DNA of 64,000 bases from Candidatus Woesearchaeota archaeon (GCA_043810355.1 JBDROB010000075.1:16565-80564); one strand, 5' to 3'; counted from the first letter of the stretch, positions 29,453 to 51,976 are shown. Notes: generated from the sequence alone by a model not told the origin. Numbers and translations: made by a program.

Positions 29453-30553
29453 TTACTTCCCAAGAATCCTCTCAGCCTCACCAATTACATCTTCAACATT
29501 TATCTCTTGTATACAGGAACAGTCCTTATTGTACCTGCCATACATGTCATAGCAAAGCCTTTTTTTCTGCCCTGCTGCGACCACCTTTGCCTTTTCTGGC
29601 GAAAACCTTTTTGGAGGAGTCGGCCCGAATATGGCTATCTGAGGGATTTTCATAGCAGCAGCAATATGCATCAATCCTGTATCATGGGATATGAACAGAT
29701 CACATTTTCCAATGACTGCTGCGCTAACTTTCAGGCTTAATTTTCCGCTTAAGTCTGTTGGTTTTTTCTTCATAAGCTTCATGATATCATTTATTATATC
29801 AGAGTCTTCTTTTGATCCAAAAAATATTATATTGTTTTTCTCAATCAATTTATTGCAGATCTTGGCATATTTTGGTTTTGGCAGCCTTTTTGAGTCCATC
29901 TCTTGCCCTGGATTCTTTGCCCCCCCTGGAGCAATCCCAATTAATGTTCTCTTTGTTTTTGCTTTTCTTACAATTTCATCTGCTTCATTATTTTCTTCAG
30001 GAGAGATAGATATCTCCATCTGTTTGCTTATATTTCCAATCTTAAGCAATCCTAATAATGAATTGTTATAATCAAGCTCATACTCCTCTCCTTTGAATTT
30101 TACACTAAGATTATGTGCAAATCCCTCTCCTTTTCTGTCAAAGCCAATCCTGTATTTCACCCTGCAGAAGTAAGCAAATAATCCCCATAACCATGATTTG
30201 TCAAAAACAATGCATAAATCATATTTTTTCCCCCTCAGCTCTTTGATCAGTTTTATGATCCCACCAATTTTTGGTTTTCTGATGATTTCCTCATCAAATC
30301 CAATGATTTCATCAATATGATTATTTCCTTCTAACACTTTTCTTGAATAATTCCCAACTAGATAATCAATTTTAGATTTTGGATATTTCTCAGCTAATGC
30401 TTTGATTGCAGGAGTTGTCATCATCACATCTCCAATGCTTGCAGACCTGATCAGCAGTATTTTCTCAGGATCAAAACCTTCCTTAATCTTTCTTTTCTTG
30501 AAAATAAACATCATATTTCCAATTATTCCTACTGTTCTATTTAGCAGACTCAT
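29453..30553 (-). CDS. GT9-family glycosyltransferase (ADP-heptose:acceptor heptosyltransferase-like).
   Basis: 'ILLIRSASIGDVMMTTPAIKALAEKYPKSKIDYLV' GT9 N-domain. C-terminal 'SHDTGLMHIAAAM'. Confidence 0.75.
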   Translation of the reverse strand: MSLLNRTVGIIGNMMFIFKKRKIKEGFDPEKILLIRSASIGDVMMTTPAIKALAEKYPKSKIDYLVGNYSRKVLEGNNHIDEIIGFDEEIIRKPKIGGIIKLIKELRGKKYDLCIVFDKSWLWGLFAYFCRVKYRIGFDRKGEGFAHNLSVKFKGEEYELDYNNSLLGLLKIGNISKQMEISISPEENNEADEIVRKAKTKRTLIGIAPGGAKNPGQEMDSKRLPKPKYAKICNKLIEKNNIIFFGSKEDSDIINDIMKLMKKKPTDLSGKLSLKVSAAVIGKCDLFISHDTGLMHIAAAMKIPQIAIFGPTPPKRFSPEKAKVVAAGQKKRLCYDMYGRYNKDCSCIQEINVEDVIGEAERILGK

Positions 30554-31145
30554 CTTCCATATCCTTCATCTTCTCAAGGCCTAAAAATATTGCTCCAGGA
30601 ACAATACCTGAATTGAGAGTTGAATTCTTCAGGTTTTCAAGAACCTCTTCTTTTGTCATTTCCATGACTGTAATATCTTCAGTCTGATCAAGCTTTTGTT
30701 CACTGACTTTCTCAGCTCCAGTTGCAAAAAATATATGGCACACACTTCTTGTTGCAGTTGGGTCAAGAAATATTGTGCCAATCTTTTCAATCTTTTCATA
30801 TTTATATCCTGTTTCTTCAAGCACTTCTCTCTTTGCTGCTTCTTCAGGAGTCTCTCCATCATCGATCATGCCTGCTGGAATCTCGTGTATCTCTTCTTGC
30901 GCTCCATGCTTGTATTGTTTTAATATCAATATCTTGTTTTGTTTGGTCAAGCAAAAAACAATCACAGAATCTGGTCTTTCAATTATATAATAATCTTCAA
31001 TTATTTTGTTATTGGGTAATCTAATCTTCTCTCTTTTCACATTCACCCATTTGTTCTGGACTAAATATTCAGATTCAAGCACTTTCCATTTTCCATTATC
31101 TTCTTTATCTGCCATATTCATATCCTTCCTATGATTCTCCACCAT
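30537..31145 (-). CDS. NUDIX hydrolase (ADP-ribose / ADP-sugar pyrophosphatase-like). The start is probably the internal Met at ~31115.
   Basis: Nudix box 'GMIDDGETPEEAAKREVLEETG'. Confidence 0.75.
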   Translation of the reverse strand: MVENHRKDMNMADKEDNGKWKVLESEYLVQNKWVNVKREKIRLPNNKIIEDYYIIERPDSVIVFCLTKQNKILILKQYKHGAQEEIHEIPAGMIDDGETPEEAAKREVLEETGYKYEKIEKIGTIFLDPTATRSVCHIFFATGAEKVSEQKLDQTEDITVMEMTKEEVLENLKNSTLNSGIVPGAIFLGLEKMKDMEDESAK

Positions 31146-31837
31146 TTGAGCTTTAATACCATTATATATCCTTTGTATAATTGTTTGAACCCTAGTTTTG
31201 ATTTTCCTAGTTCCCTTTCTACAAAATGTATAGGGACTTCACAGATCTTAAATCCTTTAAGATGTGTCTTGTAAAGCATCTCTTGCACAATTGATGGCCC
31301 CTGAGAAACCATTTTGTCCAATTCAATTGATTCAAGCACTTCTCTTTTGAAAAACCTATAGCCTGAGTTGCAATCTCTTGCTTTTATCCCTAGTATTATC
31401 TGTATATAAAGATTTGCTAATATTGTAATAATCCTTCTCAATAATGGCCTTCCGATATCCTTACCTCCCTTTACTAGTCTAGACCCTAATACGATATCGC
31501 ATTCTTTTATCTTTTCAAGCAGGTCTGGGATATATTTTGGATTATGTGAATAGTCAGCATCCATCTCACCCACAACATCAGCTCCCTTTGATAAAGCATA
31601 TTTGAATCCAGCTATTCCTGCAGTCCCTCTTCCTCTTTCTGTTGTCCTTGTGATCAGATGTATCTTTTTGCTTTTCTTCTGCATCTTTTGAACAAGACCA
31701 GACGTGCCATCAGGGCTATTATCATCAACTACAACAATCTCTATGTCTAGTTGAATCAATTCATTAAGAAGATTCTGAATATTCTCTGATTCATTGTATG
31801 TTGGTACTATTACAAATGCTTTCATTTCTTCCCCCAA
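31118..31837 (-). CDS. GT2 glycosyltransferase (Dpm1-like polyprenyl-phosphate hexose synthase).
   Basis: 'FVIVPTYNESENI...VVVDDNSPDGT...GEMDADYSH'. Confidence 0.8.
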   Translation of the reverse strand: MGEEMKAFVIVPTYNESENIQNLLNELIQLDIEIVVVDDNSPDGTSGLVQKMQKKSKKIHLITRTTERGRGTAGIAGFKYALSKGADVVGEMDADYSHNPKYIPDLLEKIKECDIVLGSRLVKGGKDIGRPLLRRIITILANLYIQIILGIKARDCNSGYRFFKREVLESIELDKMVSQGPSIVQEMLYKTHLKGFKICEVPIHFVERELGKSKLGFKQLYKGYIMVLKLKWWRIIGRI

Positions 31838-31882
31838 ATAAAAAATTGAAGATTAAACATATTAATTTTTATAAATTTCATA

Positions 31883-32935
31883 CTATCTCTCCAATATCTT
31901 TTTCACAGCATCAAACAATATATCAACTGTTATCAATTCCATGCATTTAATTTTTTCATCACAATCCATCAGATAGCAAACCAAGCAGTCTTTATTCGGA
32001 ATAATTTTTATCCCATTTCCATACATCTCAATCTCAGCAGCAGGAGTCGGCCCAAAAAAGCTCACAACTTTCTTATCCTGAGCAATTCCTAAATGCATTC
32101 CAAGTGTATCGCTGGCCACAACAGCATCACATAAGTTAATGAGTGCAGCAAACTCAAGCAGTAAATTTTCACATCCTGCATCAATTATTTTCTCATTGAC
32201 CAAATCCATTATCATGCTGTTCCTTTCAACCTCATCAGGCCCTCCAAATAATATCACTTTAGCACCTAATTCTGAAATCAATCTATCAGCAAGCTCAGCT
32301 GTCTTCTCTTCACTTATCCTTTTATATTTCCATCTTCCTCCTGCACCAGTATTCAGTCCAATTATCAGATTATCTTCATTAATTCCATTTTTCTCTGAAA
32401 AACTCTTTGCAAACTCTCTCTCACTGTCTGAATACTTCACTAAAGGTTTATTCAATCCAATATCAAGTATTTCTGCAATATGCTTCTGATATGATTTTTT
32501 GTTCTCTGCTTTGAGTTGGTCTGCTTTCTCTTTTCCACCTTTCTCATCAGGTCTTAACAATCCCATCCCAAACCATTGTTCAGAATCATCTGTATATTTC
32601 CTTTCACCATCAGGATCAAGGTATGCTCCAGTTATTTTCTTGCTTTTTACAGAACTTGCCAATTCACACATTGCTTTTTCATCATCTAAAGAAACAACCA
32701 TATCATACTCATTTGTTAGCTTGTATTTAGTATCCCTATTAAATGCGATTTTCTCATCAATAAGATCAATATTTTTTATCAAGTCAAGATTAAATTTTGA
32801 AGTCACCCATGTAATCTCACAATCCTTATATTTTTCCTTTAGTCCAGGAAGTATAAATGTAGTCCTGACTACATCACCTGATGCTCCACATTTTATTATT
32901 AAAATTCTAAAATCCCCCATAGGTATAAAGAACAA
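31883..32935 (-). CDS. GT9-family glycosyltransferase (heptosyltransferase-like), second copy.
   Basis: 'ILIIKCGASGDVVRTTFILPGLKEKY'. C-terminal 'ASDTLGMHLGIA'. Confidence 0.7.
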   Translation of the reverse strand: MFFIPMGDFRILIIKCGASGDVVRTTFILPGLKEKYKDCEITWVTSKFNLDLIKNIDLIDEKIAFNRDTKYKLTNEYDMVVSLDDEKAMCELASSVKSKKITGAYLDPDGERKYTDDSEQWFGMGLLRPDEKGGKEKADQLKAENKKSYQKHIAEILDIGLNKPLVKYSDSEREFAKSFSEKNGINEDNLIIGLNTGAGGRWKYKRISEEKTAELADRLISELGAKVILFGGPDEVERNSMIMDLVNEKIIDAGCENLLLEFAALINLCDAVVASDTLGMHLGIAQDKKVVSFFGPTPAAEIEMYGNGIKIIPNKDCLVCYLMDCDEKIKCMELITVDILFDAVKKILER

Positions 32936-33981: not shown

Positions 33982-35547
33982 ATGAAATCCAAACATATCC
34001 ATATCTTATTAATAACAATCCTTTATCTTTTCACTATATTCACCTGGACCCAGCCTATAAGAACAAATGAAATCCCTTTTGGCCAGGTTGATGCATCATC
34101 TCATTTTACAGTTGCAGATTACACTTCATCTTATGATCAGCCAATAACAGATCTGCCAAAATACATCTATTACAGATATGGATTAGACAATACTTACAAA
34201 GAGAACACTCTTTGGTATCATCCTCCATACCACCTAAACCTTGCCCTCATTCAGATATTCACAAACAGTCGTTTTCTTTCATTCTACATATTTATAGCAA
34301 TCCTCTGCTCATTGGTAGTATTGATCAATTATTTCATAATAAACAGATGGTATGGGTTCTGGCATGCATTCCTATCTTCTGTTTTAGTTGCATTTGCAGG
34401 TAGAAATGTTCTTGTCTACCTTTTCGGCCAATGGCCAGAAAGAATTTCTTATTTCTTCACTCCAATCATTATTTACCTATTCTATATGTATTTCATAAAT
34501 TACAAAAAAAAGGAAGAAAAGACCATTTACATGTATCTTCTAGCAATCCTGCTTGCCATAAACCTCTTGCTCCATCCAATGGGATTTTTCCATTCAATTG
34601 CAGCATTGGCAATAATCTATCTTTTATTGGCATTAAAAGAAAAAAAGATTTTCATTATCAACTTAAAAACATTGATTCTGCCAATAATAACTTTCTTAAT
34701 CATAATTGCAATATTCCCTTATCAGACTGGTAATGTCATAAAGAGCTTCCAAGGATCTCCAAGTATAGAAGGGACTAGTGGTGATATAAGCAGGTTATTC
34801 TCATGGTTTAAAAAACCAGATAATCTTGGAGGTGTTCCAGAGATTTATTTCTCATTTGCTGATATGAATGGCATTTGGATCATACCTTTGATATTGATAG
34901 GAATTATCTTCCTTGTATTAAGAAGAAAAACCCAAGATATTTTCATGCTTGGCTGGCTCATCTCATTATACATAGTGATTCATGCAGATGTTATTGGCAA
35001 AGGCCCTTTTGTACATCGTTCTTTGGCAGCTTCTAACATGGTTTTTGCACCGCTAGCAGCAATAGGGATTTTAGCAATAATCTCATTTATTCCATTAGCA
35101 AAACAAAAAAGACAAATTGTAAAATATGGTCTAATCACAGCCTTCATCATTCTTGCTATAATCTATAATATAATCCCTTCAATAAGCATGCTTAACACTT
35201 TTTATGAATCACCTCTATCAAGACTTAATCCATTTCAATTTGAAGTTTCTCAATGGTTGACAGCCAACACAGATAAAGATGATGTAATCCTTGATCTTGG
35301 CACATCTTCATTGGCAAAGCAGCGCTGGATGCAGTACATATCTCAGAGACATTTTAATGGAATCAATATTGAGGAATTAGAGCAAGGGATTCCAAATACT
35401 CATGTTATATATGATTACAGTGATCTTGTTCTTATGGGTGATCGGAACACATTTGATCAATTAGTCTCAAATGAACAACAGAACTTCAATAATTCACAGC
35501 CAATCTACAATAAAGAAAACATCAGGGTGTATAGAATTGAAAATTGA
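33982..35547 (+). CDS. GT-C-like polytopic membrane protein (putative glycosyltransferase).
   Basis: First-loop acidic residues 'QVDASSHFTVADY'. '...WYHPPYHLNL...SLVVLINYFIINRWYGFWHAFLSSVLVA' arrangement like ArnT/PMT_2. Confidence 0.45.
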   Translation: MKSKHIHILLITILYLFTIFTWTQPIRTNEIPFGQVDASSHFTVADYTSSYDQPITDLPKYIYYRYGLDNTYKENTLWYHPPYHLNLALIQIFTNSRFLSFYIFIAILCSLVVLINYFIINRWYGFWHAFLSSVLVAFAGRNVLVYLFGQWPERISYFFTPIIIYLFYMYFINYKKKEEKTIYMYLLAILLAINLLLHPMGFFHSIAALAIIYLLLALKEKKIFIINLKTLILPIITFLIIIAIFPYQTGNVIKSFQGSPSIEGTSGDISRLFSWFKKPDNLGGVPEIYFSFADMNGIWIIPLILIGIIFLVLRRKTQDIFMLGWLISLYIVIHADVIGKGPFVHRSLAASNMVFAPLAAIGILAIISFIPLAKQKRQIVKYGLITAFIILAIIYNIIPSISMLNTFYESPLSRLNPFQFEVSQWLTANTDKDDVILDLGTSSLAKQRWMQYISQRHFNGINIEELEQGIPNTHVIYDYSDLVLMGDRNTFDQLVSNEQQNFNNSQPIYNKENIRVYRIEN

Positions 35548-36329: not shown

Positions 36330-36358
36330 TCATAAATCATCTAACTTCAACCTTACTT

Positions 36359-38001: not shown

Positions 38002-39831
38002 CTATGTATTTTCCTCTCCCTCACCTATAATTGTTCCTTCACCTTCAGTTGCTGTGACCTCTCCACCTTCAGCTGCCACTTGCTGTGCTTGAATCATTTC
38101 CATAAATTTTGCCATATTCGAGCAATCATCAATCTTATTATTTTTTACAATACTGACTACTTGGTTGTTAAACACTTCACTCATCCCATTTGTCAAGAAC
38201 ACAGCTCTTACAAGATTATTATATTGTATAAATGCAGGAGTCCTGCTTGCATCTGGATGGATGTCAAAAACATAATAATCAAAACTGCAGATATCCATTG
38301 AAGAGAACTTAAGTGACATGTCACCAAATTCTTCATTATATTCCCATTCATGCCTGCCGAACTCAAACAATCCTTTCCTGTAAGGATATCCTGGAAGACT
38401 ATCCCCTGGCCTCTCAGTGTTATAATAGGGAAGGACTGTTCCATTCTGTACTGCTCTTTGATATTCTTGATCCTGCCAATTGATAAAGAAGTGGAATCTG
38501 TGGCTGTTCCTCAATATTGCATCCTGGTCATAGATATCTCCATAAAAAAAGTAAACTTTAGAATCAATTGGAGTATTGTCTGATATCCATGTTATTGCTT
38601 CCCAATGATATGGGTCAATTGCGCTGAACTGGCTAGGTTTGTCATAATAGGCATATATGATGCTAAGCAACAGCACTAAACTTATAATCACACTATACAT
38701 TGTTTTCCATTTGATTTTTGCAAGGCTCTTGACCAATATAATAAGATAATAAACAGCAATCCCAAAAAACACTGCTAAAAATATTGGAAAAAAGAATCTT
38801 GATTGGAATGCTTTCCTGAATCCTATGAAATTAAAACTTCCCATCATAAATCCGAAGAATCCAAATAATAATGCATAATCAATTCCTTTCTTGTCAATCA
38901 GCTTCTTCACCAATATAATTCCAGAGACCACCATCCCAATTATCACAATTATTGAGATCAATTTAAACTGCTGAAAGATTGTGGAATATGTGACATTATT
39001 GTATATTGGATTTCCAACTCCCACAAACCTTAGGAATCCATTTGGAAAAAACCCTGTCCCTCCATTTGATCCTTGTTGAATATCACCAACTACATAAAGA
39101 AGAACAAATATTATTGAATAATAGATTGGCAAGACTACACCAACTGCTCCTCCAATAATTATATTTTTTATATCCTTTAGTTTCAGTCTGTGATAGATGA
39201 ACTTAATGGCAACAAATGCGCCGACTATCCCAACAATATAGAAATATTCTATTCCATGTGCAATCATTGTGACTCCCCAGAAAATTCCAAAAAATATCCA
39301 GCTCTTTTTCAGTTCTATTCTTGAGAAAAACCATAATACTCCTATGACAAAAAGGTTTGTTATGAAAAATGGCCTTGACCCAAACCTTATTCCAATAAAG
39401 AATGGATCAATGAACACTAACAGCATCAATGGAAGGGAGAGCAGGGCCACATTCGTGTTATATTCCCTAATGATCACATAAATGAACAGGCAGCTGATAA
39501 TAGTGATTATGATTGTTACAAAGAATATCACATCATACACTTCTAATCCTGAAGCAATTGAAAATGCAGCACTTATATAATATAGTCCTGGAGGATAGAA
39601 ACCTACTACATCATGATATCCAGTTGAGCCATAGAATGGATTGAACTTATAGCTTCCCTCTTCTTTGACCCAGTCTGTCTTTGGCAGATGTTGGAATGCG
39701 TCTGATGCAAAGTCTCCATGAGGATAGTCATGCCTGAGGCTATTGTCATAGAGTGCAAACCCTACCCACATCATCACTAGAACAAATACTACAAGATAGA
39801 TTTTCTCAATATTAATCTTAAATTCTTCCAT
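38002..39831 (-). CDS. GT-C-like membrane protein with a C-terminal soluble domain (putative glycosyltransferase).
   Basis: 'DYPHGDFASDAFQHL...FYPPGLYYISAAFSIASGLEVYDVIFFVTIIITIISCLFIYVIIREY' ArnT-like. Confidence 0.5.
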   Translation of the reverse strand: MEEFKINIEKIYLVVFVLVMMWVGFALYDNSLRHDYPHGDFASDAFQHLPKTDWVKEEGSYKFNPFYGSTGYHDVVGFYPPGLYYISAAFSIASGLEVYDVIFFVTIIITIISCLFIYVIIREYNTNVALLSLPLMLLVFIDPFFIGIRFGSRPFFITNLFVIGVLWFFSRIELKKSWIFFGIFWGVTMIAHGIEYFYIVGIVGAFVAIKFIYHRLKLKDIKNIIIGGAVGVVLPIYYSIIFVLLYVVGDIQQGSNGGTGFFPNGFLRFVGVGNPIYNNVTYSTIFQQFKLISIIVIIGMVVSGIILVKKLIDKKGIDYALLFGFFGFMMGSFNFIGFRKAFQSRFFFPIFLAVFFGIAVYYLIILVKSLAKIKWKTMYSVIISLVLLLSIIYAYYDKPSQFSAIDPYHWEAITWISDNTPIDSKVYFFYGDIYDQDAILRNSHRFHFFINWQDQEYQRAVQNGTVLPYYNTERPGDSLPGYPYRKGLFEFGRHEWEYNEEFGDMSLKFSSMDICSFDYYVFDIHPDASRTPAFIQYNNLVRAVFLTNGMSEVFNNQVVSIVKNNKIDDCSNMAKFMEMIQAQQVAAEGGEVTATEGEGTIIGEGEENT

Positions 39832-39863
39832 TTTTTATTTTTTTTAACTTTTTTTCTTTTTTA

Positions 39864-39960
39864 ATATTCATTTTTTGGTTTCAAATGAATGTTATCTAAT
39901 CCCGAATTCACTCAATCTTAGAATCAATTGAATTCGTTACTCTTTAATATTTTTTTTACT
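39864..39960. other. Poly-T/A-rich spacer containing an 8-bp inverted repeat (cgaattca N17 tgaattcg).
   Basis: Direct reading. Lies between two minus-strand genes. Confidence 0.35.
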
Positions 39961-39977
39961 TTTATGTCTTTTCTTTT

Positions 39978-42311: not shown

Positions 42312-43066
42312 TCCTGCTTTTTCTCAGCAACACATAAGATACTTAATCCAAATCCAAAATTAATATTATTTTCAACATTTTTAAACCAGATATTCAGCAT
42401 ATTATTCAAAAAACTTGTTTTATCACTTCGAAATCCTGCTTTCAATGACCTCTTCATTATCTTCTCACTGATCAGATAAGGGAAAAATCCCATCATATTC
42501 CAATATCTCATTCTTTTTATATTAAAACCATTTTTCAATAATATTTTCCTAAGCATCTTGGATGTATATCTTCTTTTGTGCCCAGCCAAAATATCTCTTT
42601 TGCCGTATAAGAACCTGAAGCATGGAACAACTATGATCAATTGGCCTTTCTCATTGATTATATTTCCCAAATCTGAAACAACCTTATAATCATCTTCAAT
42701 ATGTTCTAGTACATCAATCATTACAGCAGAATCAACATTTTCTTTCAATAACTTACCTATATTCTCAGCTGATTCATTATATATTTCTGAATCAGGATTG
42801 ATTGCTCTGGCATGATCTGCAGAATCTTTGTCAATTTCCAGTCCAAATGTTTTCATCCCCCTTTTATTCAATAGCCTTATCAGGTATCCTCCTCCACAAC
42901 CAATATCCAGCACACTTTTCCCTTTTATGTTTTTCATAATAAGATTAAACAGGTTATAATCCCTGAAATCATTTTTAATATATTCATCTTTAAAATTATC
43001 ATAGGAAAAACTGCATCTCTTGCAAAACTTGCCTTGCATTGGTTGCCCGCATACAGCACATTTCAT
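42308..43066 (-). CDS. Class I SAM-dependent methyltransferase with an N-terminal zinc ribbon.
   Basis: 'CAVCGQPMQGKFCKRCSF'. Motif I 'VLDIGCGGGYLIRLL'. Confidence 0.7.
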   Translation of the reverse strand: MKCAVCGQPMQGKFCKRCSFSYDNFKDEYIKNDFRDYNLFNLIMKNIKGKSVLDIGCGGGYLIRLLNKRGMKTFGLEIDKDSADHARAINPDSEIYNESAENIGKLLKENVDSAVMIDVLEHIEDDYKVVSDLGNIINEKGQLIIVVPCFRFLYGKRDILAGHKRRYTSKMLRKILLKNGFNIKRMRYWNMMGFFPYLISEKIMKRSLKAGFRSDKTSFLNNMLNIWFKNVENNINFGFGLSILCVAEKKQD

Positions 43067-43153
43067 TTTATAACCCTCAAATATTTCCCCCCATTGTAAT
43101 CAGTTATTTCAACTTATTTAAATATTACCCTAGAGGAATACTCTATTATACCA

Positions 43154-44164
43154 TTATCTGATCTTCCTTAAGATAGGGATTGCAAAAACACAGAGTATTA
43201 GCACAAATATATACATGATTATATGTACAGAAAATCCAGATATTATTGCTTGTTCTTTTCCAATTCCAAGGGCAATCATCGCTATTGCCCAAGCACCTTC
43301 AGATGTCCCAAATCCGCCAAAAGAGTGGATCGGCAGGATGCTTGCCCACATAAGGAATATGAATGCTATCATTATTATCCATATATTTATTTGTATATTA
43401 AGGCTCAATATCATAAAATAAAATGAAGTCAAGAAACTGGCCCATATCAATATAGAATAGATGATGACCTGCACTATCTTTTTCCTTGATTTGATATTTT
43501 TTATTTCTTCAATAACCTCTTTTATTTTTATCAAAAAAAACCCTATTATCCTGTAATGTCCTATTTTCAGCAGTTCACAAAGCCTTAAAACAATCTTGTA
43601 TATATTGTATCTTGTAAATATCAAAATAAATAATATCATAATCATTAACAGCAGAAATATTGACATTATTTTCAGAATACTGGACATTATGCTTGGTATT
43701 TCTCCAATATTCAATAGTGCTATTGAAAAAATTATCAATGACACAGTAAAATCCATCACCCTGCCTATGATGAGTGCTGAGATTGATTGAGCACTTTTGA
43801 CATTGCCTATTCTTTTTGTAAAATACACAAAACTGAGCTCACCAAGCCTTGCTGGTATCAGATTATTCAATAGTGCATGCATTGACACAATCTTGAATAG
43901 TTTGTTCGCATTAATTCTGTCATTCAGCAATGCCTTAAACCTTAATGTTCTGAAAAGATAGGTTATTGCATATAGCACAAATCCTACAAAAAGCAGTTGT
44001 ATGTCAGCATTTTTCAATGTTTCAAACAGGCTCTTAAACGTTATCTGTGACAGCAATAACCAGATCAAACCTAATGCAATCACCCCAAAAATAACATTTT
44101 TAATAATTTTTTTTTTGTTCATATTGGAAAATATAATGTTTTTGACATAAACAGGAGAGGGCAT
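43154..44164 (-). CDS. Flippase-like UPF0104-family membrane protein (second copy).
   Basis: 'FKSLFETLKNADIQLLFVGFVLYAITYLFRTLRFKALL' as in ORF 12660. Confidence 0.55.
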   Translation of the reverse strand: MPSPVYVKNIIFSNMNKKKIIKNVIFGVIALGLIWLLLSQITFKSLFETLKNADIQLLFVGFVLYAITYLFRTLRFKALLNDRINANKLFKIVSMHALLNNLIPARLGELSFVYFTKRIGNVKSAQSISALIIGRVMDFTVSLIIFSIALLNIGEIPSIMSSILKIMSIFLLLMIMILFILIFTRYNIYKIVLRLCELLKIGHYRIIGFFLIKIKEVIEEIKNIKSRKKIVQVIIYSILIWASFLTSFYFMILSLNIQINIWIIMIAFIFLMWASILPIHSFGGFGTSEGAWAIAMIALGIGKEQAIISGFSVHIIMYIFVLILCVFAIPILRKIR

Positions 44165-44199
44165 AAATATTTAAATACTTATGTTTTCTTTATGGTAAG

Positions 44200-45186
44200 A
44201 TGAAAATACTGGTTACTGGGGGAGCTGGCCTTATTGGCCATAATGTTTGCAGAAAACTTCTTGAAAAAGACCATATTGTTGTATGTATTGATAACCTAAG
44301 TGATAATTATGGTCAGGATCTGAAGCAGTCAAATATCAACAGCCTCAAAACATCATTCCAAGATTCTTTTATCTTTTATAATGCAGATATCACAGATATA
44401 GATGAGATAAAAAAGATATTTTCTCTTGAAAATATTGAGAAGATTATCCATTTGGCTGCAATGGCAGGTGTCAGGCCTTCAATAGAAAAGCCAATATTAT
44501 ATACAAATGTTAATATCATTGGGCTTCAGAACTTGCTCGAGATTGCCAGAAAATATAATATCAAGAAATTTGTGTCAGCATCATCCTCTTCTGTTTATGG
44601 GGATAGGGAAGAGACCCCGTTTAAGGAGTCAGATAACACAGACTATCCAATATCTCCTTATGCAGCTACAAAGAAAGCAGGTGAAGTCCTCTGCTACACA
44701 TATCATAATCTCTTTGATATAAACATGGTATGTCTTAGGTTTTTCACAGTCTATGGGCCTGGAGGCAGGCCTGATATGGCTATATTCAAGTTCACAAGGC
44801 TTATAGATGAGCAGAGGCCTATTACAGTTTTTGGAGATGGATCTTCAAAACGTGATTATACTTTTGTCAATGATGTGACAGATGGCATTATCTCAGCATT
44901 AGATGCTGACCTTAAGTTTGAGATTATCAATTTAGGGGACAATAATCCTGTCCAGCTTAATTATCTGATTGCATTGATTGAGAAGAATATTGGGAAAAAG
45001 GCTATAATCAATAGGATGGCAATGAATCCAGGTGATGTGACAATAACCTGCGCAGATATAAGTAAGGCAAAAAAATTGTTGAATTATAGTCCTAAGATAA
45101 ATATTGATGATGGTATAAGGATTTTTGTTGAGTGGTACAAGAATTACACAACCTCAAAAAATAATGATAAACCTTTTCAAAATTGA
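44200..45186 (+). CDS. NAD-dependent nucleotide-sugar epimerase (UDP-glucuronate/UDP-GlcNAc 4-epimerase-like).
   Basis: 'ILVTGGAGLIGHNVCRKL'. 'YAATKKAGEVL'. 'FFTVYGPGGRPDMA'. Confidence 0.8.
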   Translation: MKILVTGGAGLIGHNVCRKLLEKDHIVVCIDNLSDNYGQDLKQSNINSLKTSFQDSFIFYNADITDIDEIKKIFSLENIEKIIHLAAMAGVRPSIEKPILYTNVNIIGLQNLLEIARKYNIKKFVSASSSSVYGDREETPFKESDNTDYPISPYAATKKAGEVLCYTYHNLFDINMVCLRFFTVYGPGGRPDMAIFKFTRLIDEQRPITVFGDGSSKRDYTFVNDVTDGIISALDADLKFEIINLGDNNPVQLNYLIALIEKNIGKKAIINRMAMNPGDVTITCADISKAKKLLNYSPKINIDDGIRIFVEWYKNYTTSKNNDKPFQN

Positions 45187-45197
45187 GAATAACATTC

Positions 45198-46127
45198 CTA
45201 CAACACTTTTTCAATATAATAACTCTTCCTATTTCCGCCATAATATGTTTTGATCAGAATATCTGCCAATAATCCTAATATTATCAGCTGGAATCCAAGT
45301 ATCATGAACAATACCCCTAACAGCAGCAATGGCCTGTTTGTGAGTGATTCATTGAAAAAGAATTTTCTGAAAGTTAGATACAGATTGACCAGAAACCCAA
45401 ATAAGAATGATAATATGCCTAATCCCCCAAAAAGGTGCATTGGCCTTGTTGAATACTGCATCCAGAATTTGATGACCAAAAGATCAAGAAATCCTTTCAA
45501 GACCCTTACAAAATTGTATTTTGTCTTGCCATATTTTCTACCCCTATGATTCACTTTTACCTCTCCAATCTTATATCCCTTCCACATCAATAAAAGGGGT
45601 ATAAATCTGTGCATCTCTCCGAAAAGGTTGATATCAACAAGGCATTCTTTTTTATATGCTTTTAATGAGCATCCAGAATCATGGATCTTCTCACCCGTGA
45701 TAGCTTTTCTGAATACATTAGCAATCTTAGATATGATTTTTTTTAAAAAACTGTCTATTCTATTATGCCTCCATCCGCTTACAACATCATATCCCTGTCC
45801 CATTTTCTCAAGCAGGTTTGGGATATCATGTGGATCATTCTGGAGATCTCCGTCCATCTCAATTATCACTTTTCCTTGAGCAAGACTAAACCCTGCATCC
45901 AATGCAGATGTCTGTCCAAAATTCTTCCTGAACTTGATGATCCTTAAATGCTTGTTCTTCTCCATGATTTTGGTCATAAAAAAGAAAGATCTGTCTTTGC
46001 TCCCATCATCAATAAGGATTATCTCAAATTTGTCAGTTATCCCTTTAAGGACATCTGTGATTTCATCTACTAGAAACTTGATATTCTTTTCTTCATTAAA
46101 TATTGGTATTACAACACTTATGTCCAT
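45198..46127 (-). CDS. GT2 glycosyltransferase (Dpm1-like) with C-terminal TM helices.
   Basis: 'ISVVIPIFNEEKNIKFLVDEI...ILIDDGSKDRS...EMDGDLQND'. Confidence 0.8.
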   Translation of the reverse strand: MDISVVIPIFNEEKNIKFLVDEITDVLKGITDKFEIILIDDGSKDRSFFFMTKIMEKNKHLRIIKFRKNFGQTSALDAGFSLAQGKVIIEMDGDLQNDPHDIPNLLEKMGQGYDVVSGWRHNRIDSFLKKIISKIANVFRKAITGEKIHDSGCSLKAYKKECLVDINLFGEMHRFIPLLLMWKGYKIGEVKVNHRGRKYGKTKYNFVRVLKGFLDLLVIKFWMQYSTRPMHLFGGLGILSFLFGFLVNLYLTFRKFFFNESLTNRPLLLLGVLFMILGFQLIILGLLADILIKTYYGGNRKSYYIEKVL

Positions 46128-46236: not shown

Positions 46237-46761
46237 TTATCTCTTCTCACTCTCATCATTATAAATATCTAGAATCTTGTCAATAAACTTTGTTGTGGAA
46301 AACCCTTCTATAAATTTGGCAATATGGATCCTTCCGCCATTTTTTTTCACAATTGGTGCTTCAACACAGTCTTCTCCATAATCACTGCCATTTACATGGA
46401 TATGTGGTTTTAGATTGTCAAGGAATGGCATGCACTCTGGCTCATCATATATCTCAATATAATCAACACTGTCAAGTGCTGCAAGCATCTCTGCTCTTGC
46501 CCAGGCAGGATTTATCGGTCTTTTATGCCAGTTTGGATTATTTACAAATTTCTTCCATTCTCTTACAGACTCATCGCTGTTCAGGCCTAGAATCAGGACG
46601 TCCCCTTGTTTTCTGGCCTCTTGGAGCATTTTGATATGCCCAATATGGAGTATATCATAACTTCCATTGATAGAAACTATTGTCTTGCCCTGGTTTCTTA
46701 ATTCATCAGCAATCTGCCTGATATCTTCTCTTGTTTTTACTTTTGGACTTGTAATTTTCAT
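46237..46761 (-). CDS. D-glycero-beta-D-manno-heptose 1-phosphate adenylyltransferase (HldE/RfaE domain II-like cytidylyltransferase-fold enzyme), encoded as a stand-alone protein.
   Basis: 'VSINGSYDILHIGHIKMLQEARKQGDVLILGLNSDESV' has the (T/H)xGH nucleotidyltransferase motif and strong similarity to RfaE domain II. Confidence 0.7.
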   Translation of the reverse strand: MKITSPKVKTREDIRQIADELRNQGKTIVSINGSYDILHIGHIKMLQEARKQGDVLILGLNSDESVREWKKFVNNPNWHKRPINPAWARAEMLAALDSVDYIEIYDEPECMPFLDNLKPHIHVNGSDYGEDCVEAPIVKKNGGRIHIAKFIEGFSTTKFIDKILDIYNDESEKR

Positions 46762-47657
46762 TAGATCGCCTTCATTATCATTTTGTATAGGCTAGGGATT
46801 GTCTTTTCATGCCTTTCAATAATAACAAATCCCTTTCCTCCTAAAGCGCTTACAGGTCTTTCCACAACATTTAATCTTGGCCTGTAATGGTCAATCATAT
46901 CTAAATTTGCAGTTGTGATATCACCTATATCATATCCTAGATTTCTTACAATTGTGATTGCTTTTAAAAATGTTTCTGGTAATATTACTGCACTTCCAAT
47001 ATTGACTATCACTCCTTTGTCAGCTTTGCTAAGGGTATCTGCAAATTTCTTAAAGTCAATATATGTTGCTTTTCCAAGGCTGCTTCCATCACATTTTGGA
47101 TTCATATGGATTGTGTCATTCCCTATTGCAACATGGACTGTTGCAGGTATCCCAAGCTTATAGGCCTGATACAGCACACTCTTCTCCTTATTCTTTCCAT
47201 TTAATTCATCAATTTTCTTGCCAATTGCATGTCCATACCCGTTTCCTGAGCCTGCACCTTCTTTGATTGCGCTATTCATCATCTCTCCTGTCTCTTTGAC
47301 CATTCCAAATGTGCCATTCTTGATTCCAGCTTCAACATCCTCGCTTGTCTCTCCATATGTTGCAATCTCAAAATCATGTATGCTTGTTGCTCCATTCATC
47401 ACAATATGGTTTATCACTCCTTTTTTCATCAGATCTACAATATAGGCGCTCATTCCTGTCTTGACAACATGACCGCCTATCATGAATATTATCTGTTTGT
47501 TTTTATTGTATGCCTCGATTATTCTTTCTGCAAGCTCTCTTAGATCCTCATTCTCAATTATCTTGAATGGGTCATCTGGGTTTGGAAACCTAGTTAATGC
47601 CTCTTTATGTTCCCTGTCTGCAATGCTTATTGTCTTGATTTTTGAAAAGTCTATCAT
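46761..47657 (-). CDS. Deoxyhypusine synthase-family protein.
   Basis: Collinear with the DHS blocks: 'GGHVVKTGMSAYIVDLMKKGVINHIVMNGATSIHDFE', 'IATYGETS...NGTFG', 'IPATVHVAIGNDTIHMNP', 'GVIVNIGSAVILPE', 'ERPVSALGGKGF'. Confidence 0.55.
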   Translation of the reverse strand: MIDFSKIKTISIADREHKEALTRFPNPDDPFKIIENEDLRELAERIIEAYNKNKQIIFMIGGHVVKTGMSAYIVDLMKKGVINHIVMNGATSIHDFEIATYGETSEDVEAGIKNGTFGMVKETGEMMNSAIKEGAGSGNGYGHAIGKKIDELNGKNKEKSVLYQAYKLGIPATVHVAIGNDTIHMNPKCDGSSLGKATYIDFKKFADTLSKADKGVIVNIGSAVILPETFLKAITIVRNLGYDIGDITTANLDMIDHYRPRLNVVERPVSALGGKGFVIIERHEKTIPSLYKMIMKAI

Positions 47658-47666
47658 TTTAACAAC

Positions 47667-48248
47667 TCAATTGTTTAGTAGTATCCAATCTGCTGCCTTG
47701 TCAAGGTTTTTTGCAATAAATGTTGGTTTTACTTCATAATGGCCATCTTTCCCTTTTTCCCCTGATTCAGTCAATAAAAGTATTGTCCTGCATCCTATAC
47801 TCTCGCCTGTCTTGATATCAGCTGTCTTATCTCCTACAAAATAACTCTTTTCAATATCAATCTTAATCCCTTTATCAACCATATCTTTTATAGCGTTTTG
47901 TATCATACCATTCTTTGGTTTTCTGCAGTCACAATCAACCCTGTATATATCTTTGCCTTCAGGATGATGAGGGCAGTGATAAACTCCATCTAATAGAATA
48001 TTATTTTTTTTAAGTTCTTCTAGCATCAATCCAGTAAATTTATTATAATCTTCTTCAGTATAATACCCTTTTCCTATTCCAGATTGGTTTGTTATAACAA
48101 TTAATAGATAATTTTTTGATTGTAGTTTCTGGAGACCTTTAATCACTCCTTCTTCAAATCGGAATTTCATGAGCTCATATGTGAATCCATAATCTATATT
48201 GATTGTTCCATCCCTGTCTAAAAAAACAGCTTTTTTGATTATTGCCAT
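47667..48248 (-). CDS. gmhB: D,D-heptose 1,7-bisphosphate phosphatase (GmhB, HAD superfamily).
   Basis: 'AVFLDRDGTIN' motif I. 'ITNQSGIGKGYY'. Zn-binding 'CPHHP...CDCRKP'. Confidence 0.75.
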   Translation of the reverse strand: MAIIKKAVFLDRDGTINIDYGFTYELMKFRFEEGVIKGLQKLQSKNYLLIVITNQSGIGKGYYTEEDYNKFTGLMLEELKKNNILLDGVYHCPHHPEGKDIYRVDCDCRKPKNGMIQNAIKDMVDKGIKIDIEKSYFVGDKTADIKTGESIGCRTILLLTESGEKGKDGHYEVKPTFIAKNLDKAADWILLNN

Positions 48249-48310
48249 TATTGTAATTTATGGTTATTTATAATTATTTAAACATTTCTTATATCCAACA
48301 CTATTGTTGA

Positions 48311-49309
48311 TCATGATAAGCTTTTTATTAATTCATCTCTTGTAATAGTGGCTGTTCCAACTTTTTCAATAGCAATACCTGCTCCATGATTCGCTAGATA
48401 TGCAGATGCATGGATATCTAGTTCAATATTGGCTAATGCCAATAATGAGATAACTGTATCGCCTGCTCCTGAAACATCAATAACAGATTTTGCCTTTGTA
48501 GGTTCTAATGAGTGATTATGATGATTATCATAGCTGAACATTCCTCTTTCACTTAGTGTGATGACTAAATATTCTGGAGATAATCTCTGCATCATTTCTC
48601 TTCCAATATCTATAATATTGTCAGCTCTGCCATTTAGTCTGAGTCCAGTGAATTGTTCAGCTTCGCTGAGATTGCAGCATACTAGTGTTGAGTTTTGATA
48701 GAATATAGCATTTGTTGGTTTCACTTCAGAATATACTTTGACACCTTTTTTTGTTGCATATTCTATTAATTCTCTGACAACAGGTTCTATTAATAGCCCT
48801 TTGTTATAATCAGATAATATTACTGCATCACTTTCATCAATACAAGGTTTTACACTGTCCAATAGCATTTGACCTGTCTTTTCAGATATTGGGCTTGTAT
48901 CTTCTTCATCAAATCTGGCAATTTGTTGTTGATGGGCCAATAGTCTCTGTTTTACTATAGTGCTCCTGTTATTTCCATTATATATAGGTATAAATGATAT
49001 TCCATATTGTCTGCATAATTCCTCTACCTTTCCACCATAAAAATCATTTCCTATCAATCCACATAAAGTAACTTGAGCATTTAATGCTGCTAGATTTTGT
49101 GCAACATTACCTCCTGCTCCAAGATTATAACTATGTCCATTAACTCTTACTAAAGGAGCAGCTGGTTGTTCTGGATTGATCCTTTCAACTTCTCCAATTA
49201 GGTAATGGTCTAGGGCAATATCTCCTAATACCAGAATCCTTCTTTTATCAAAATTGCTGATTGCTTTTCTCAGATCATAATCATTTGCCATTCTATTATT
49301 TCTCTCCAT
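48311..49309 (-). CDS. D-beta-D-heptose 7-phosphate kinase (HldE/RfaE domain I-like, PfkB ribokinase family), stand-alone.
   Basis: 'RRILVLGDIALDHYLIGEVERINPEQPAAPLV' matches the RfaE-I N-terminus. 'DVSGAGDTV' PfkB signature. Confidence 0.75.
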   Translation of the reverse strand: MERNNRMANDYDLRKAISNFDKRRILVLGDIALDHYLIGEVERINPEQPAAPLVRVNGHSYNLGAGGNVAQNLAALNAQVTLCGLIGNDFYGGKVEELCRQYGISFIPIYNGNNRSTIVKQRLLAHQQQIARFDEEDTSPISEKTGQMLLDSVKPCIDESDAVILSDYNKGLLIEPVVRELIEYATKKGVKVYSEVKPTNAIFYQNSTLVCCNLSEAEQFTGLRLNGRADNIIDIGREMMQRLSPEYLVITLSERGMFSYDNHHNHSLEPTKAKSVIDVSGAGDTVISLLALANIELDIHASAYLANHGAGIAIEKVGTATITRDELIKSLS

Positions 49310-49388
49310 TATTTAATACCTGTTCTATTGTATCCCCTTTGTTCAGACTCGGAAGTATGTCAATACCTTATTTAAGAACAAGACTTAA

Positions 49389-49877
49389 TTAATGCCTTTT
49401 TCTTTCATTGATTCTGTCCAATGAATATCTAGCTATTGAATCAGCAATATCACTCCCAACTACTCCATTTGGGATAAAATCAATATATGGCCTTAAGCTT
49501 AAAAGCCCAGGATCTTTAGAATATGCTAAAAAGATTGGATCTGACTGTCTTTGCCCTGTTGATTGAATCTTAAGAATCCTTTTTACATCTTCTGGAAGTC
49601 CAGAATCAATTTGAGGGTCATCGATTACAACAAATCCATTCCATAAAGGGTATGATAATTGCTGTAAAAGCACTTTTCTTATATCATCAGGTCTATGGCC
49701 ATACTCTTTACCACCTATGGCAATAAATGCTCTTGATTCTGGCTTAACTCTTTCTGCTACTTTTTCAAATAATCCATATTTGCTGCTTGATTTTCCAAGC
49801 AATAATACATCTGATTTATTCAGGAATGCTGTTTCTGATCCTTCTACCATTTTTTTACCTTTCTTATTTAATAACAT
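49389..49877 (-). CDS. Hypothetical protein (162 aa). There is no convincing SIS/GmhA signature.
   Basis: ORF only. Confidence 0.4.
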   Translation of the reverse strand: MLLNKKGKKMVEGSETAFLNKSDVLLLGKSSSKYGLFEKVAERVKPESRAFIAIGGKEYGHRPDDIRKVLLQQLSYPLWNGFVVIDDPQIDSGLPEDVKRILKIQSTGQRQSDPIFLAYSKDPGLLSLRPYIDFIPNGVVGSDIADSIARYSLDRINERKRH

Positions 49878-50054
49878 TAAAGTATGAACTATTCATACTA
49901 TTCTTTTACCTTATTTAAATACATTATTGTTCTATAACATATATTCTAGAAAATATAAATTATTAAAAAGGTATTACTATATCATACTGTTAGGGGGGGC
50001 ATAATAATAGACTGAACTAAATAAGAACATCTAATATTATGAATAATAATTAAG

Positions 50055-50810
50055 ATGAAGAAAGAAAAGATTGCTATTTCTGTGGATAAGCCATTGTTAG
50101 ACATATTAGACTCTAAAGTTGACGGTTCAATCATCCGCTCGAGATCACAGGCTTTTGAGATTTACCTTAAAAAAGGTCTTGGTTCTCAGCAGATTAGCAC
50201 AGCTGTGATCCTTCTAAAGTCAGATCATCATAAAGTGGCATTAAAGAATCTTAAGTCAAGGACCTTGATCAAGAATCAGCTTGATTTCTTCAATAGTTTT
50301 GGTATCAAAAAGATTCTTATTGTGACCCAATCCTCAAACCATCTGGATAAGATCAATCATGAATGCCTTCACACAACCCAGGATGTCAAGATAATCGAGG
50401 ATGATTCTAAAGGTAATGCAAATGCATTGTTCAGGGTTAAGAAGATGTTGGATGACTCAAACTTTATTGTGACCAGCGGTGATGTCTATAATGATTTTGA
50501 CCTTAACAAGATGATCTCAAAGCATATACACAATGATAAGCTTGCAACAATGGGCCTTATGACAAGAGAAAAACCATCTCAATATGGGAACGCAGTTCTT
50601 GATGGGGATCAGATTATTGATTTTCAGGAAAAGCCAAGGCAGACAACCTCATTCATTGTTAATGCTGGGATATACATATTTAAGCCAGAGATCTTTGAGC
50701 TTTTTGAAAACACTTCTTCTTTGGAAAAAGATGTCTTTCCAAGGTTAGCCAGAATAAAGCAGCTGAATGGCTTTTTCACTTACGGCGAATATCATCATAT
50801 GGAAGAATGA
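50055..50810 (+). CDS. Sugar-phosphate nucleotidyltransferase (GT-A-like NTP_transferase; heptose-1-P or hexose-1-P nucleotidyltransferase) with an N-terminal ribbon-helix-helix-like segment.
   Basis: 'IVTSGDVYNDFDLNKMI...GLMTREKPSQYGNAVLDGDQIIDFQEKP...VNAGIYIFKPEIF'. Confidence 0.6.
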   Translation: MKKEKIAISVDKPLLDILDSKVDGSIIRSRSQAFEIYLKKGLGSQQISTAVILLKSDHHKVALKNLKSRTLIKNQLDFFNSFGIKKILIVTQSSNHLDKINHECLHTTQDVKIIEDDSKGNANALFRVKKMLDDSNFIVTSGDVYNDFDLNKMISKHIHNDKLATMGLMTREKPSQYGNAVLDGDQIIDFQEKPRQTTSFIVNAGIYIFKPEIFELFENTSSLEKDVFPRLARIKQLNGFFTYGEYHHMEE

Positions 50811-50836
50811 TGGAAGAATAGAAATCAGGTATTCTA

Positions 50837-51976
50837 TCAGCTTTTCAAATTCTCAGTATGTTTCATAATATCATCAACCTTAATGTTTTTCATGCAGATA
50901 TTATTATGCCCTGATTGAAGGCATTCAGGCACTTGCCCCAGATGAACATTTATGCAAGGGCTAAACTCACAAATCTCACCTTTATACAGTCCAACACTAT
51001 CTTTCTGAAAAGGTCTCCATCTGACTGGAAGATTTGGGCCAAACAAGCCGATTGTTTTTGTTCCCATTGCAGCTCCAATATGCATTGGTCCTGAATCATT
51101 GCTAATAATTAGATCACATCTTTCTTCAAGATAAAAAAGCTGTTGCAAACTTGTTTTCCCAGCAAGATTAACAATCTTACCTTTATTCTTGACCAATCTG
51201 ATTATTTCATCATTTAACTTGATATCATCTGAGCTTCCTAACAACACAATTTTTGTATTCTTCTCATCAATAAGCCTGTCACCAAGCTCAGCAAACCTTT
51301 CCTTCATCCACATCCTTGATTTTGCTGACTCTGCAGCTCCTGCAAACAAGCCAACTAAAAAATCATTTTTAGACACTTTATTATCATTCAAAAGGCTTTC
51401 AATGTATTTTTTATCCTTGTCACCATACATCAATCTCTCCAGATTCAAAACTGTCCCTTCATATCCAATTAGTCTTATCAGGTCAAGATGAGTCTCAACT
51501 ACATGCTGTTTGTCATTATAAGAAACAGATTTTGACAGAGTCATACCTCTGATCCTGTTATCATAACCTATCCTAAACTTCCCTACAAAAAATGATATTA
51601 TTGAGGAAATATTCAGATACTCTTCAAAATCAACAACAAGCGAATATTTCCTGTAATTTTTTGATACAAAACCCAAAATAGAAAGAAAGTTAGTCTCAAT
51701 CACAATCAAATTATCAAAAAAACCTTGGCCTTCAAAAACATCCTTTGCTCTCCTTGTAGTCAATATATCAACTTCAGAATCATTATACTGCTCTCTTAAT
51801 GCCTTGATTGCAGGCAGAGTCAATATTGTCTCTCCAATCCCCCATAGTTGAATTACTAATATCCTATTAACACCCTTTAACTTTTTCCTAAAGAATATTT
51901 TGTTCAAGATTCCAAGCTTTAGGCAAACCAGTGTCCCAATATATTTGTCTAAAATCTTAATGCTTTTTACACTCAT
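50837..51976 (-). CDS. GT9-family glycosyltransferase (heptosyltransferase-like), third copy.
   Basis: 'RILVIQLWGIGETILTLPAIKALREQYNDSEVDILT'. C-terminal 'SNDSGPMHIGAAMG'. Confidence 0.7.
   Translation of the reverse strand: MSVKSIKILDKYIGTLVCLKLGILNKIFFRKKLKGVNRILVIQLWGIGETILTLPAIKALREQYNDSEVDILTTRRAKDVFEGQGFFDNLIVIETNFLSILGFVSKNYRKYSLVVDFEEYLNISSIISFFVGKFRIGYDNRIRGMTLSKSVSYNDKQHVVETHLDLIRLIGYEGTVLNLERLMYGDKDKKYIESLLNDNKVSKNDFLVGLFAGAAESAKSRMWMKERFAELGDRLIDEKNTKIVLLGSSDDIKLNDEIIRLVKNKGKIVNLAGKTSLQQLFYLEERCDLIISNDSGPMHIGAAMGTKTIGLFGPNLPVRWRPFQKDSVGLYKGEICEFSPCINVHLGQVPECLQSGHNNICMKNIKVDDIMKHTENLKS

Follow-up and report, generated by a model that had tools for sequence, protein, structure and literature searches.

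Why would an archaeon keep genes for making ADP-heptose and for transferring heptose, and why next to AglB, the oligosaccharyltransferase of archaeal N-glycosylation? The question is raised by a 64-kb stretch of DNA from a Candidatus Woesearchaeota archaeon (GCA_043810355.1, JBDROB010000075.1:16565-80564), a DPANN archaeon represented by a metagenome-assembled genome (MAG) of uncultured source; the whole stretch was analysed and is called the window here. It holds a minus-strand operon for nucleotide-heptose biosynthesis enzymes, three genes of the GT9 heptosyltransferase family, and AglB. Our answer, which we consider reasonably likely from gene content and gene order, is that the region forms the heptose arm of a surface-glycosylation island of ~45 kb, with a heptosylated, lipid-linked glycan that would be delivered by AglB.

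Is this DNA archaeal in the first place? The gene families concerned are typical of the Gram-negative lipopolysaccharide (LPS) inner core, and the operon kinase has bacterial relatives with 37-41% identity, both of which would fit an assembly or binning error that placed bacterial DNA in an archaeal MAG. However, an archaeal RNase P RNA (RF00373, 4136-4481, plus strand, 118 bits), which we took as a domain marker, shares the same 64 kb with genes for AglB, a TrmB regulator and RNA polymerase subunit D (Rpb3-type), and the G+C content is uniform, ~0.33, across the glycosylation island. The nearest relatives of the window proteins are found in MAGs named 'Candidatus Woesearchaeota archaeon', and the gene order is shared by a contig of a sister MAG (GCA_043805595.1, JAZDHV010000006.1), whose proteins are 76-99% identical. 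The RNase P RNA and these closest relatives identify the source as a Woesearchaeota (DPANN) MAG. Contamination is not credible because of the archaeal markers, the uniform G+C, the Woesearchaeota relatives and the sister MAG, and the recurrence of the AglB-adjacent arrangement in ~30 independent archaeal MAGs, described below, effectively refutes it.

The operon occupies 46237-49309 and holds four genes, listed here from kinase to adenylyltransferase:

48311-49309, minus strand: predicted stand-alone PfkB heptose-7-phosphate kinase (HldA or RfaE domain I-like) of a divergent clade; TIGR02198 288 bits, cut-off 345.
47667-48248, minus strand: predicted GmhB heptose-1,7-bisphosphate 7-phosphatase, HAD-IIIA; TIGR00213 175 bits, above the cut-off of 149.6.
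46761-47657, minus strand: GSU2086-family protein, 298 aa, with a deoxyhypusine synthase (DHS)-like fold; NF052581 377.1 bits over residues 2-292, cut-off 250.
46237-46761, minus strand: predicted stand-alone heptose-1-phosphate adenylyltransferase (HldC or RfaE domain II-like); TIGR02199 141.9 bits, cut-off 181.5.

The genes are tightly packed, with 62 bp between kinase and GmhB, 9 bp between GmhB and the GSU2086-family gene, and the stop of the latter overlapping the start of the adenylyltransferase gene. The original prediction had named the kinase, the phosphatase and the adenylyltransferase, all of which we recover, but it overlooked the fourth gene, which sits between GmhB and the adenylyltransferase. 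Do the kinase and the adenylyltransferase group instead with ribokinase and glycerol-3-phosphate cytidylyltransferase? For the kinase, rfaE_dom_I (TIGR02198) is the best model, with 4.5 times the score of ribokinase (64 bits), and all its named homologues are annotated as heptose-7-phosphate kinases. The adenylyltransferase likewise matches rfaE_dom_II (TIGR02199) best, against 33.7 bits for glycerol-3-phosphate cytidylyltransferase. Its motif FIEGFSTT conforms to (F/L)xxGxSTT, the pattern defined for heptose-1-phosphate adenylyltransferases according to two commentaries (PMC11573728, PMC11461863). An Arg within that motif is tied by Tang et al. to CTP/UTP promiscuity, as given in the first (PMC11573728); since this Arg is missing from the window enzyme, ADP-heptose is favoured as the product. 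Family memberships and operon layout are observed directly, whereas the substrates of these enzymes are predicted from them.

Heptose transfer is the presumptive task of three further genes on the minus strand:

29453-30553, minus strand: GT9a, putative heptosyltransferase, WaaF-like; PF01075 133.1 bits, heptosyltransferase II equivalog model TIGR02195 145.8 bits against a cut-off of 134.6.
31883-32935, minus strand: GT9b, putative heptosyltransferase, the most divergent of the three; PF01075 57.5 bits, TIGR02195 62.8 bits, under the cut-off.
50837-51976, minus strand: GT9c, putative heptosyltransferase, located between AglB and the heptose genes and conserved among Woesearchaeota; PF01075 118 bits.

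All three had been predicted at these positions, and in a profile search of the window's open reading frames (ORFs) each exceeds the gathering score of PF01075 (Glyco_transf_9), 22 bits. Because the GT9 proteins score above threshold and the RfaE models fit the operon enzymes best, the original prediction survives on both counts. In an alignment with Escherichia coli WaaC and WaaF, the equivalents of WaaC D261 and H266 are invariant in GT9a, GT9b and GT9c, D13 is conserved in GT9a and GT9b but replaced by Glu in GT9c, and a Lys is present near the K192 position in all three; the divergent GT9b retains the GD and DT..H motifs. We take D13, K192, D261 and H266 of WaaC to be catalytic or ADP-heptose-binding residues, and we infer ADP-heptose to be the donor of the three GT9 enzymes. 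Could they act on protein? Protein O-heptosyltransferases that depend on ADP-heptose occur in bacteria (mentioned in PMC11461863), and the GT9-like enzymes might heptosylate cytoplasmic proteins directly, in the manner of bacterial autotransporter heptosyltransferases. We hold this to be very improbable: the best GT9 profile matches are LPS heptosyltransferases II and III, the genes sit among lipid-carrier enzymes and flippases, and no candidate substrate adhesin was seen in the window.

AglB itself lies ~1 kb beyond the range of the original prediction (29453-51976), and the following genes lie between it and the operon in addition to GT9c:

53177-56476, minus strand: AglB oligosaccharyltransferase (STT3), 1099 aa; PF02516 151.6 bits, PF21436 23.9 bits, WWDFG at residues 718-722.
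52370-53035, minus strand: PpgS-like GT2; NF058614 129.6 bits, under the cut-off.
52027-52368, minus strand: small DUF2304 membrane partner of the GT2; PF10066 72.4 bits.
50055-50810, plus strand: sugar-1-phosphate nucleotidyltransferase (NTP-transferase), divergent from the operon; PF00483 84.9 bits, best NCBIfam match the N-terminal half of archaeal GlmU.

The pair of PpgS-like GT2 and DUF2304 genes (52027-53035) stands immediately downstream of AglB and is kept in the sister MAG; a similar pair in mycobacteria is presumably polyprenyl-phospho-GalNAc synthase and its small partner. The NTP-transferase is 98.8% identical to its sister MAG counterpart.

Synteny with AglB is a feature of many genomes. 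In ~30 contigs of Woesearchaeota/Nanoarchaeota MAGs, some of which carry the label 'uncultured Methanosarcinales', the genes keep one order: AglB, GT2, DUF2304, GT9, NTP-transferase (on the opposite strand), isomerase, GSU2086, kinase, GmhB and adenylyltransferase. This recurrence makes the layout a trait of the lineage, and the co-localisation with AglB and Dpm1-like GT2s that had been proposed for the window is thus kept in ~30 Woesearchaeal genomes. Among 38 archaeal loci with a GSU2086-family gene, a GT9 gene is nearby in 25, an NTP-transferase orthologue in 24 and AglB (STT3) in 17, the last count being limited by contig ends and including 15 of the 20 loci in which the upstream flank of the match is a full 10 kb. 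Most relatives have an orthologue of GT9c (~400 bits) at the corresponding place, and in every one of the 17 loci whose contig extends to AglB the distance between the two genes is ~1 kb. Canonical Woesearchaeal copies pass the equivalog cut-offs (given in brackets) for the kinase with 367-382 bits (345), for the adenylyltransferase with 186 (181.5) and for the isomerase GmhA with 219 (209). Judged by its genes, the window is a derived variant of this Woesearchaeal heptose locus. Its order is rearranged to orphan ORF, kinase, GmhB, GSU2086 and adenylyltransferase, and its kinase, GmhB and adenylyltransferase reach only 120-190 bits against the canonical copies, while its GSU2086-family protein is 60% identical.

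Which enzyme would open the pathway? No sedoheptulose-7-phosphate isomerase is recognisable in the 64-kb window. The original prediction had reported no GmhA nearby, and this holds for the entire window (tblastn with E. coli GmhA, best E = 0.048); nor did any ORF scanned in the window match a SIS domain. In the archaeal loci the isomerase slot holds GmhA in 21 cases and a cupin in 8, never both together, and in the window it is taken by an orphan:

49389-49877, minus strand: orphan ORF (orf162), 162 aa (153 aa from the second Met); no Pfam or NCBIfam match.

Among 5.8 billion proteins the orphan has only 2 homologues, yet the versions in the window and the sister MAG hardly differ over the C-terminal two-thirds, and it therefore probably encodes a real protein. 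We considered whether it might be a degenerate GmhA, as its stretch 'DVLLLGKSSS...AIGGKE' visually resembles GmhA 'DVLLGISTSGNS...LTGKDGG'. The resemblance is not borne out by hhalign (probability 1%), the BLASTP E value is 0.17, the space upstream is too short for the absent N-terminal half, and the AlphaFold2 (AF2) model is unusable (pLDDT 46.5); we rejected this assignment. The cupin is a metal-binding protein of 136 aa (L018:9589-9999, plus strand; also in L024-L029 and L031), encoded directly upstream of the GSU2086 homologue. It has the motif G(X)5HXH(X)4E(X)6G and scores 36 bits with Cupin_2 and 27 bits with D-lyxose isomerase (gathering score 20.8). In an analogous reaction, D-lyxose/D-mannose isomerases interconvert a ketose and an aldose of manno configuration, and the cupin is a candidate non-orthologous sedoheptulose-7-phosphate isomerase. 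The mutual exclusion of GmhA and cupin in a single slot resembles non-orthologous gene displacement; our literature search returned nothing relevant on a cupin-type sedoheptulose-7-phosphate isomerase. HldD, the classical fifth enzyme of the ADP-heptose pathway, was not found in the window either. Three SDR proteins reach 48-117 bits with TIGR02197, whose cut-off is 274.6, and are better matched by GalE or dTDP-glucose dehydratase models, and an HldD-like gene (at least 120 bits) is present in 0 of 80 related loci.

Several points weigh against a heptosylated N-glycan precursor. The isomerase is missing from the window, and the kinase and adenylyltransferase score under their NCBIfam equivalog cut-offs; the heptose pathway is for these reasons plausible, yet on paper it is not complete. 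If the sister MAG is left aside, the kinase is closest (41-48% identity) to stand-alone PfkB proteins in DPANN contigs without heptose context. Two of these (L084:4241-5209 and L086:8001-8978) score 291-303 bits with rfaE_dom_I, again under the cut-off, and have no heptose genes within 8 kb, their neighbours being ftsZ, aIF5A or RNA polymerase genes; the substrate of the window kinase could therefore differ. The GT9 family includes a few enzymes other than heptosyltransferases. Finally, synteny with AglB is no proof of heptose on an N-glycan, as the GT-C enzymes and flippases of the island could build other glycoconjugates.

Has the module of this lineage ceased to make ADP-heptose? After loss of GmhA and replacement of the kinase and adenylyltransferase by divergent paralogues it could activate another sugar phosphate, or salvage heptose phosphates from a host. 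The sub-threshold scores, in contrast to the canonical relatives, the rearranged order with an orphan in the isomerase slot and the kinase relatives without heptose context all fit such a change, as does the metabolic dependence on hosts that is common among DPANN archaea. However, the RfaE-type models remain the best by far, GmhB is above its cut-off, three GT9 genes are kept, and GSU2086, GT9c and the NTP-transferase are still orthologous and strongly conserved. We regard a change of substrate or salvage as rather improbable, and an ADP-heptose pathway that feeds the GT9 enzymes as the better account of the operon.

What, then, does the fourth operon gene do? The GSU2086-family protein is among the most conserved of the cluster, 97.7% identical to its sister MAG counterpart compared with 76-96% for neighbouring genes. 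A look-up of the exact protein sequence gave no match, and a relative with 98% identity (P0001) led to the sister contig. With one genome scanned per species, the family turned up in at least 583 species, and a search of 1.84 billion cluster representatives gave 426 clusters (50% identity) at E <= 1e-30; no homologue was found in phage genomes. Its DHS-like NAD-binding fold is common to DHS, the LOR/SDH family and the C-terminal domain of ArgZ/AgrE, with sequence identities of 13-18%; folds of this kind bind NAD or ADP moieties. Pfam DS matches the protein with 34.9 bits, mostly over ~58 residues, and the match to the ArgZ C-terminal domain is likewise short and weak. No solved structure is a sequence relative. 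We rejected a true deoxyhypusine or homospermidine synthase because the equivalog models, at 17-34 bits, score far under their cut-offs (TIGR00321 19.7 bits against 304; other DHS models 17-25 bits against 300-450), which leaves the fold alone in common. The genomic contexts differ as well, being sugar-phosphate metabolism for GSU2086 and polyamine or eIF5A metabolism for the DHS relatives.

This context recurs across both domains. The neighbours in the 38 archaeal GSU2086 loci include the kinase in 32, GmhB in 30 and the adenylyltransferase in 28, besides the GmhA and cupin genes counted above. In bacteria, PfkB and HAD are the commonest families among the four nearest neighbours, and GT9 and SIS recur. 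Fusions occur in varied order across lineages, joining GSU2086 with SIS, with PfkB, with PfkB plus cytidylyltransferase, or with cytidylyltransferase alone on either side, and further with HAD, with cytidylyltransferase plus HAD, and with an ARMT1-type phosphatase plus cytidylyltransferase. Homologues of GmhA, HldA, GmhB and HldC are thereby all represented among the fusion partners. A PfkB-SIS fusion that adjoins a GSU2086 gene was also seen. Examples of these fusions are the following loci, and proteins P0244, P0250, P0252, P0274, P0297 and P0324:

L058:9962-11653: domain fusion.
L005:963-2942: domain fusion.
L039:8431-9984: domain fusion.

On plasmid pDCAR1 of Solidesulfovibrio carbinolicus (L088, record 82932-86013), PfkB (509 aa), GSU2086 and SIS genes form a triad; the surrounding glycan cluster is of the nonulosonic-acid type and also includes a split transketolase and three radical S-adenosylmethionine (SAM) genes. 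This order, hldE-GSU2086-gmhA, is shared with Geobacter sulfurreducens, where transposon insertions in all three genes gave similar fitness defects (PMC5585712). Our literature search found the family in one transposon-sequencing (Tn-seq) table only, and nothing relevant on deoxyhypusine synthase with heptose.

From the fusions and the gene context, the GSU2086 family is probably a fifth component of nucleotide-heptose biosynthesis, a pathway that to our knowledge has been regarded as complete since 2002. In its closest structural relatives NAD acts catalytically, by way of a transient oxidation, and sugar epimerases follow the same logic. Since HldD is absent from the window and the 80 related loci, our leading guess, a tentative one, is an HldD-like or other redox-neutral, NAD-assisted epimerase or isomerase acting on a heptose intermediate. 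A joint reading takes GSU2086 to be a widespread fifth enzyme of this kind, possibly a stand-in for HldD, in a pathway that feeds GT9 enzymes for a dolichol-linked AglB precursor, with a first step performed interchangeably by GmhA, the cupin or an orphan protein. We give this whole a somewhat less than even chance. If it is true, GSU2086 adds a new enzyme to a pathway that is a target for antibiotic adjuvants and the source of the ALPK1 agonist ADP-heptose, with relevance to archaea and also to bacteria, among them Geobacter and Desulfovibrionales.

How would heptose reach the cell surface? The surrounding island offers a flippase, lipid-carrier GT2s and large membrane proteins:

28017-29447, minus strand: Wzx/MOP-type flippase (Polysacc_synt); PF01943 115.9 bits, best NCBIfam match Wzx_EPS, under the cut-off.
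30537-31145, minus strand: NUDIX hydrolase, ADP-sugar pyrophosphatase-like type; PF00293 70 bits, best NCBIfam matches NudE, an ADP-compound hydrolase, with 62 and YffH/AdpP family with 53, both under their cut-offs.
31118-31837, minus strand: Dpm1/AglJ-like GT2, polyprenyl-phosphate sugar synthase type; PF00535 110.6 bits, PpgS and AglJ the best models, under their cut-offs.
33982-35547, plus strand: polytopic membrane protein DUF6541/PTPS_related, GT-C-like; PF20176 39.4 bits, PF10131 30 bits.
38002-39831, minus strand: DUF6541-like large membrane protein; PF20176 19.3 bits, weak.
39978-42311, minus strand: YfhO-like large membrane protein; PF09586 31.1 bits.
44200-45186, plus strand: SDR nucleotide-sugar epimerase or dehydratase, not HldD; GalE 176.6 and dTDP-glucose dehydratase 174.5 bits, above heptose_epim with 117 (cut-off 274.6).
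45198-46127, minus strand: ArnC-like GT2, polyprenyl-phosphate sugar synthase type; PF00535 106.6 bits, NF007986 207, under the cut-off.

The NUDIX hydrolase and the NTP-transferase that the original prediction had placed among the GT9 genes are both present. The gene at 39978-42311 is YfhO-like and not AglB; together with its DUF6541-like neighbour (38002-42311) it probably encodes GT-C glycosyltransferases working at the outer face of the membrane.

A heptose-bearing N-glycan is the product we would predict from these neighbours. Alternatively, heptose may be made and transferred, but to a glycolipid or lipoglycan, a Wzx/Wzy-type polysaccharide or O-glycans built by GT-C enzymes. The island does contain two MOP/MatE flippases, LPG_synthase_TM proteins and YfhO-, DUF6541- and PMT_2-type GT-C enzymes, and GT9a and GT9b adjoin the Wzx flippase, 21-24 kb from AglB. 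In contrast, the conserved GT9c stays with AglB in all 17 loci that reach it, and the window yielded neither a Wzy polymerase nor a chain-length regulator. A product other than the N-glycan is in our view unlikely.

For delivery by AglB, the steps might run as follows. Sedoheptulose-7-phosphate would first be converted to heptose-7-phosphate by an enzyme not recognisable in the window (GmhA in most relatives, the cupin in some, with the orphan ORF in the slot here). The PfkB kinase would then phosphorylate heptose-7-phosphate at O1, GmhB would take off the 7-phosphate, and the HldC-like cytidylyltransferase-fold enzyme would add AMP to yield ADP-heptose, with the co-translated GSU2086-family protein supplying an additional tailoring or isomerisation step. 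The three GT9 enzymes, acting in the cytoplasm, would move heptose onto a dolichol-phosphate-linked oligosaccharide, which the Wzx-type flippase (28017-29447) may carry across the membrane and AglB would hand to surface proteins. Outside the cell, the GT-C enzymes (YfhO-like, DUF6541-like, PMT_2) could add sugars from dolichol-phosphate donors made by the Dpm1-, ArnC- and PpgS-like GT2s.

Other parts of the window deserve a brief description. Two alike gene sets, at 12660-15115 and 42308-46127 (both minus strand), each contain a GT2, an LPG_synthase_TM 'flippase-like' protein and a SAM methyltransferase; a module for a methylated lipid-linked sugar has apparently been duplicated. A B12-binding radical SAM enzyme (17761-19275, minus strand), located in the island between a GT2 and a PMT_2 GT-C gene, may serve C-methylation or another modification of a sugar. 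The run at 22347-26899 (plus strand) is of the 2,3-diacetamido/amino-sugar type, with a hexapeptide acetyltransferase, a DegT aminotransferase, a GFO/IDH oxidoreductase, a UDP-sugar dehydrogenase fragment and an SDR. An ORF of 612 aa at the island's edge (15223-17061, plus strand) has no Pfam match, and the same is true of two large ORFs of 814 and 458 aa (57946-61779, plus strand) with a G+C of 0.39-0.41 compared with 0.33 elsewhere.

How does this locus compare with known systems? With the bacterial LPS-core ADP-heptose/GT9 system it shares a kinase of the PfkB type, GmhB of HAD-IIIA, a predicted adenylyltransferase with the cytidylyltransferase fold, and GT9 enzymes of the GT-B fold with the WaaC residues, and, as in HldA/HldC organisms, kinase and adenylyltransferase are separate proteins. 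In contrast to that system, the archaeon has no lipid A/Kdo acceptor, HldD and GmhA were not found in the window, the operon includes a GSU2086-family gene, and the neighbours are AglB and Dpm1-like GT2s rather than waa or lpx genes. Thermoplasma acidophilum provides a chemical precedent, as its N-glycan contains D-glycero-D-galacto-heptose (PMC11407970, PMC12448462) and heptose can thus belong to an AglB-type archaeal N-glycan. It belongs to a different phylum, however, has another heptose isomer and is described in those two papers by chemistry without a genetic pathway, whereas the Woesearchaeote is known from its genes alone.

The closest counterparts are archaeal. According to the commentaries on Tang et al. 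(Science 2024; PMC11573728, PMC11461863), functional archaeal heptose biosynthetic enzymes are active in vitro and the purpose of heptose in archaea 'remains elusive', and a 2025 genome comparison describes ADP-heptose clusters in glycan islands of Methanococcus maripaludis (PMC12667266). The earlier statement that such chemistry is essentially undescribed for archaeal glycans was overstated in view of these enzymes, these clusters and the Thermoplasma N-glycan. For Woesearchaeota or DPANN, the literature search found nothing relevant on heptose or on GT9 heptosyltransferases. The Tang and M. maripaludis systems resemble ours in having homologous enzymes in glycan regions and the adenylyltransferase pattern (F/L)xxGxSTT; in the text consulted there was no mention of a GSU2086-family gene or of cupin or orphan alternatives to GmhA. 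Where those reports leave the use of heptose open, the Woesearchaeota have GT9 and AglB in synteny across a DPANN lineage. Distinct here, as far as gene families can tell, is a bacterial-type ADP-heptose/GT9 module wired to an archaeal N-glycosylation locus throughout that lineage, with an extra conserved putative enzyme, GSU2086, and a variable first step. This arrangement offers a testable answer to the purpose of archaeal heptose, namely heptosylated surface glycans, and points to an additional candidate, a fifth gene, in a well-studied pathway.

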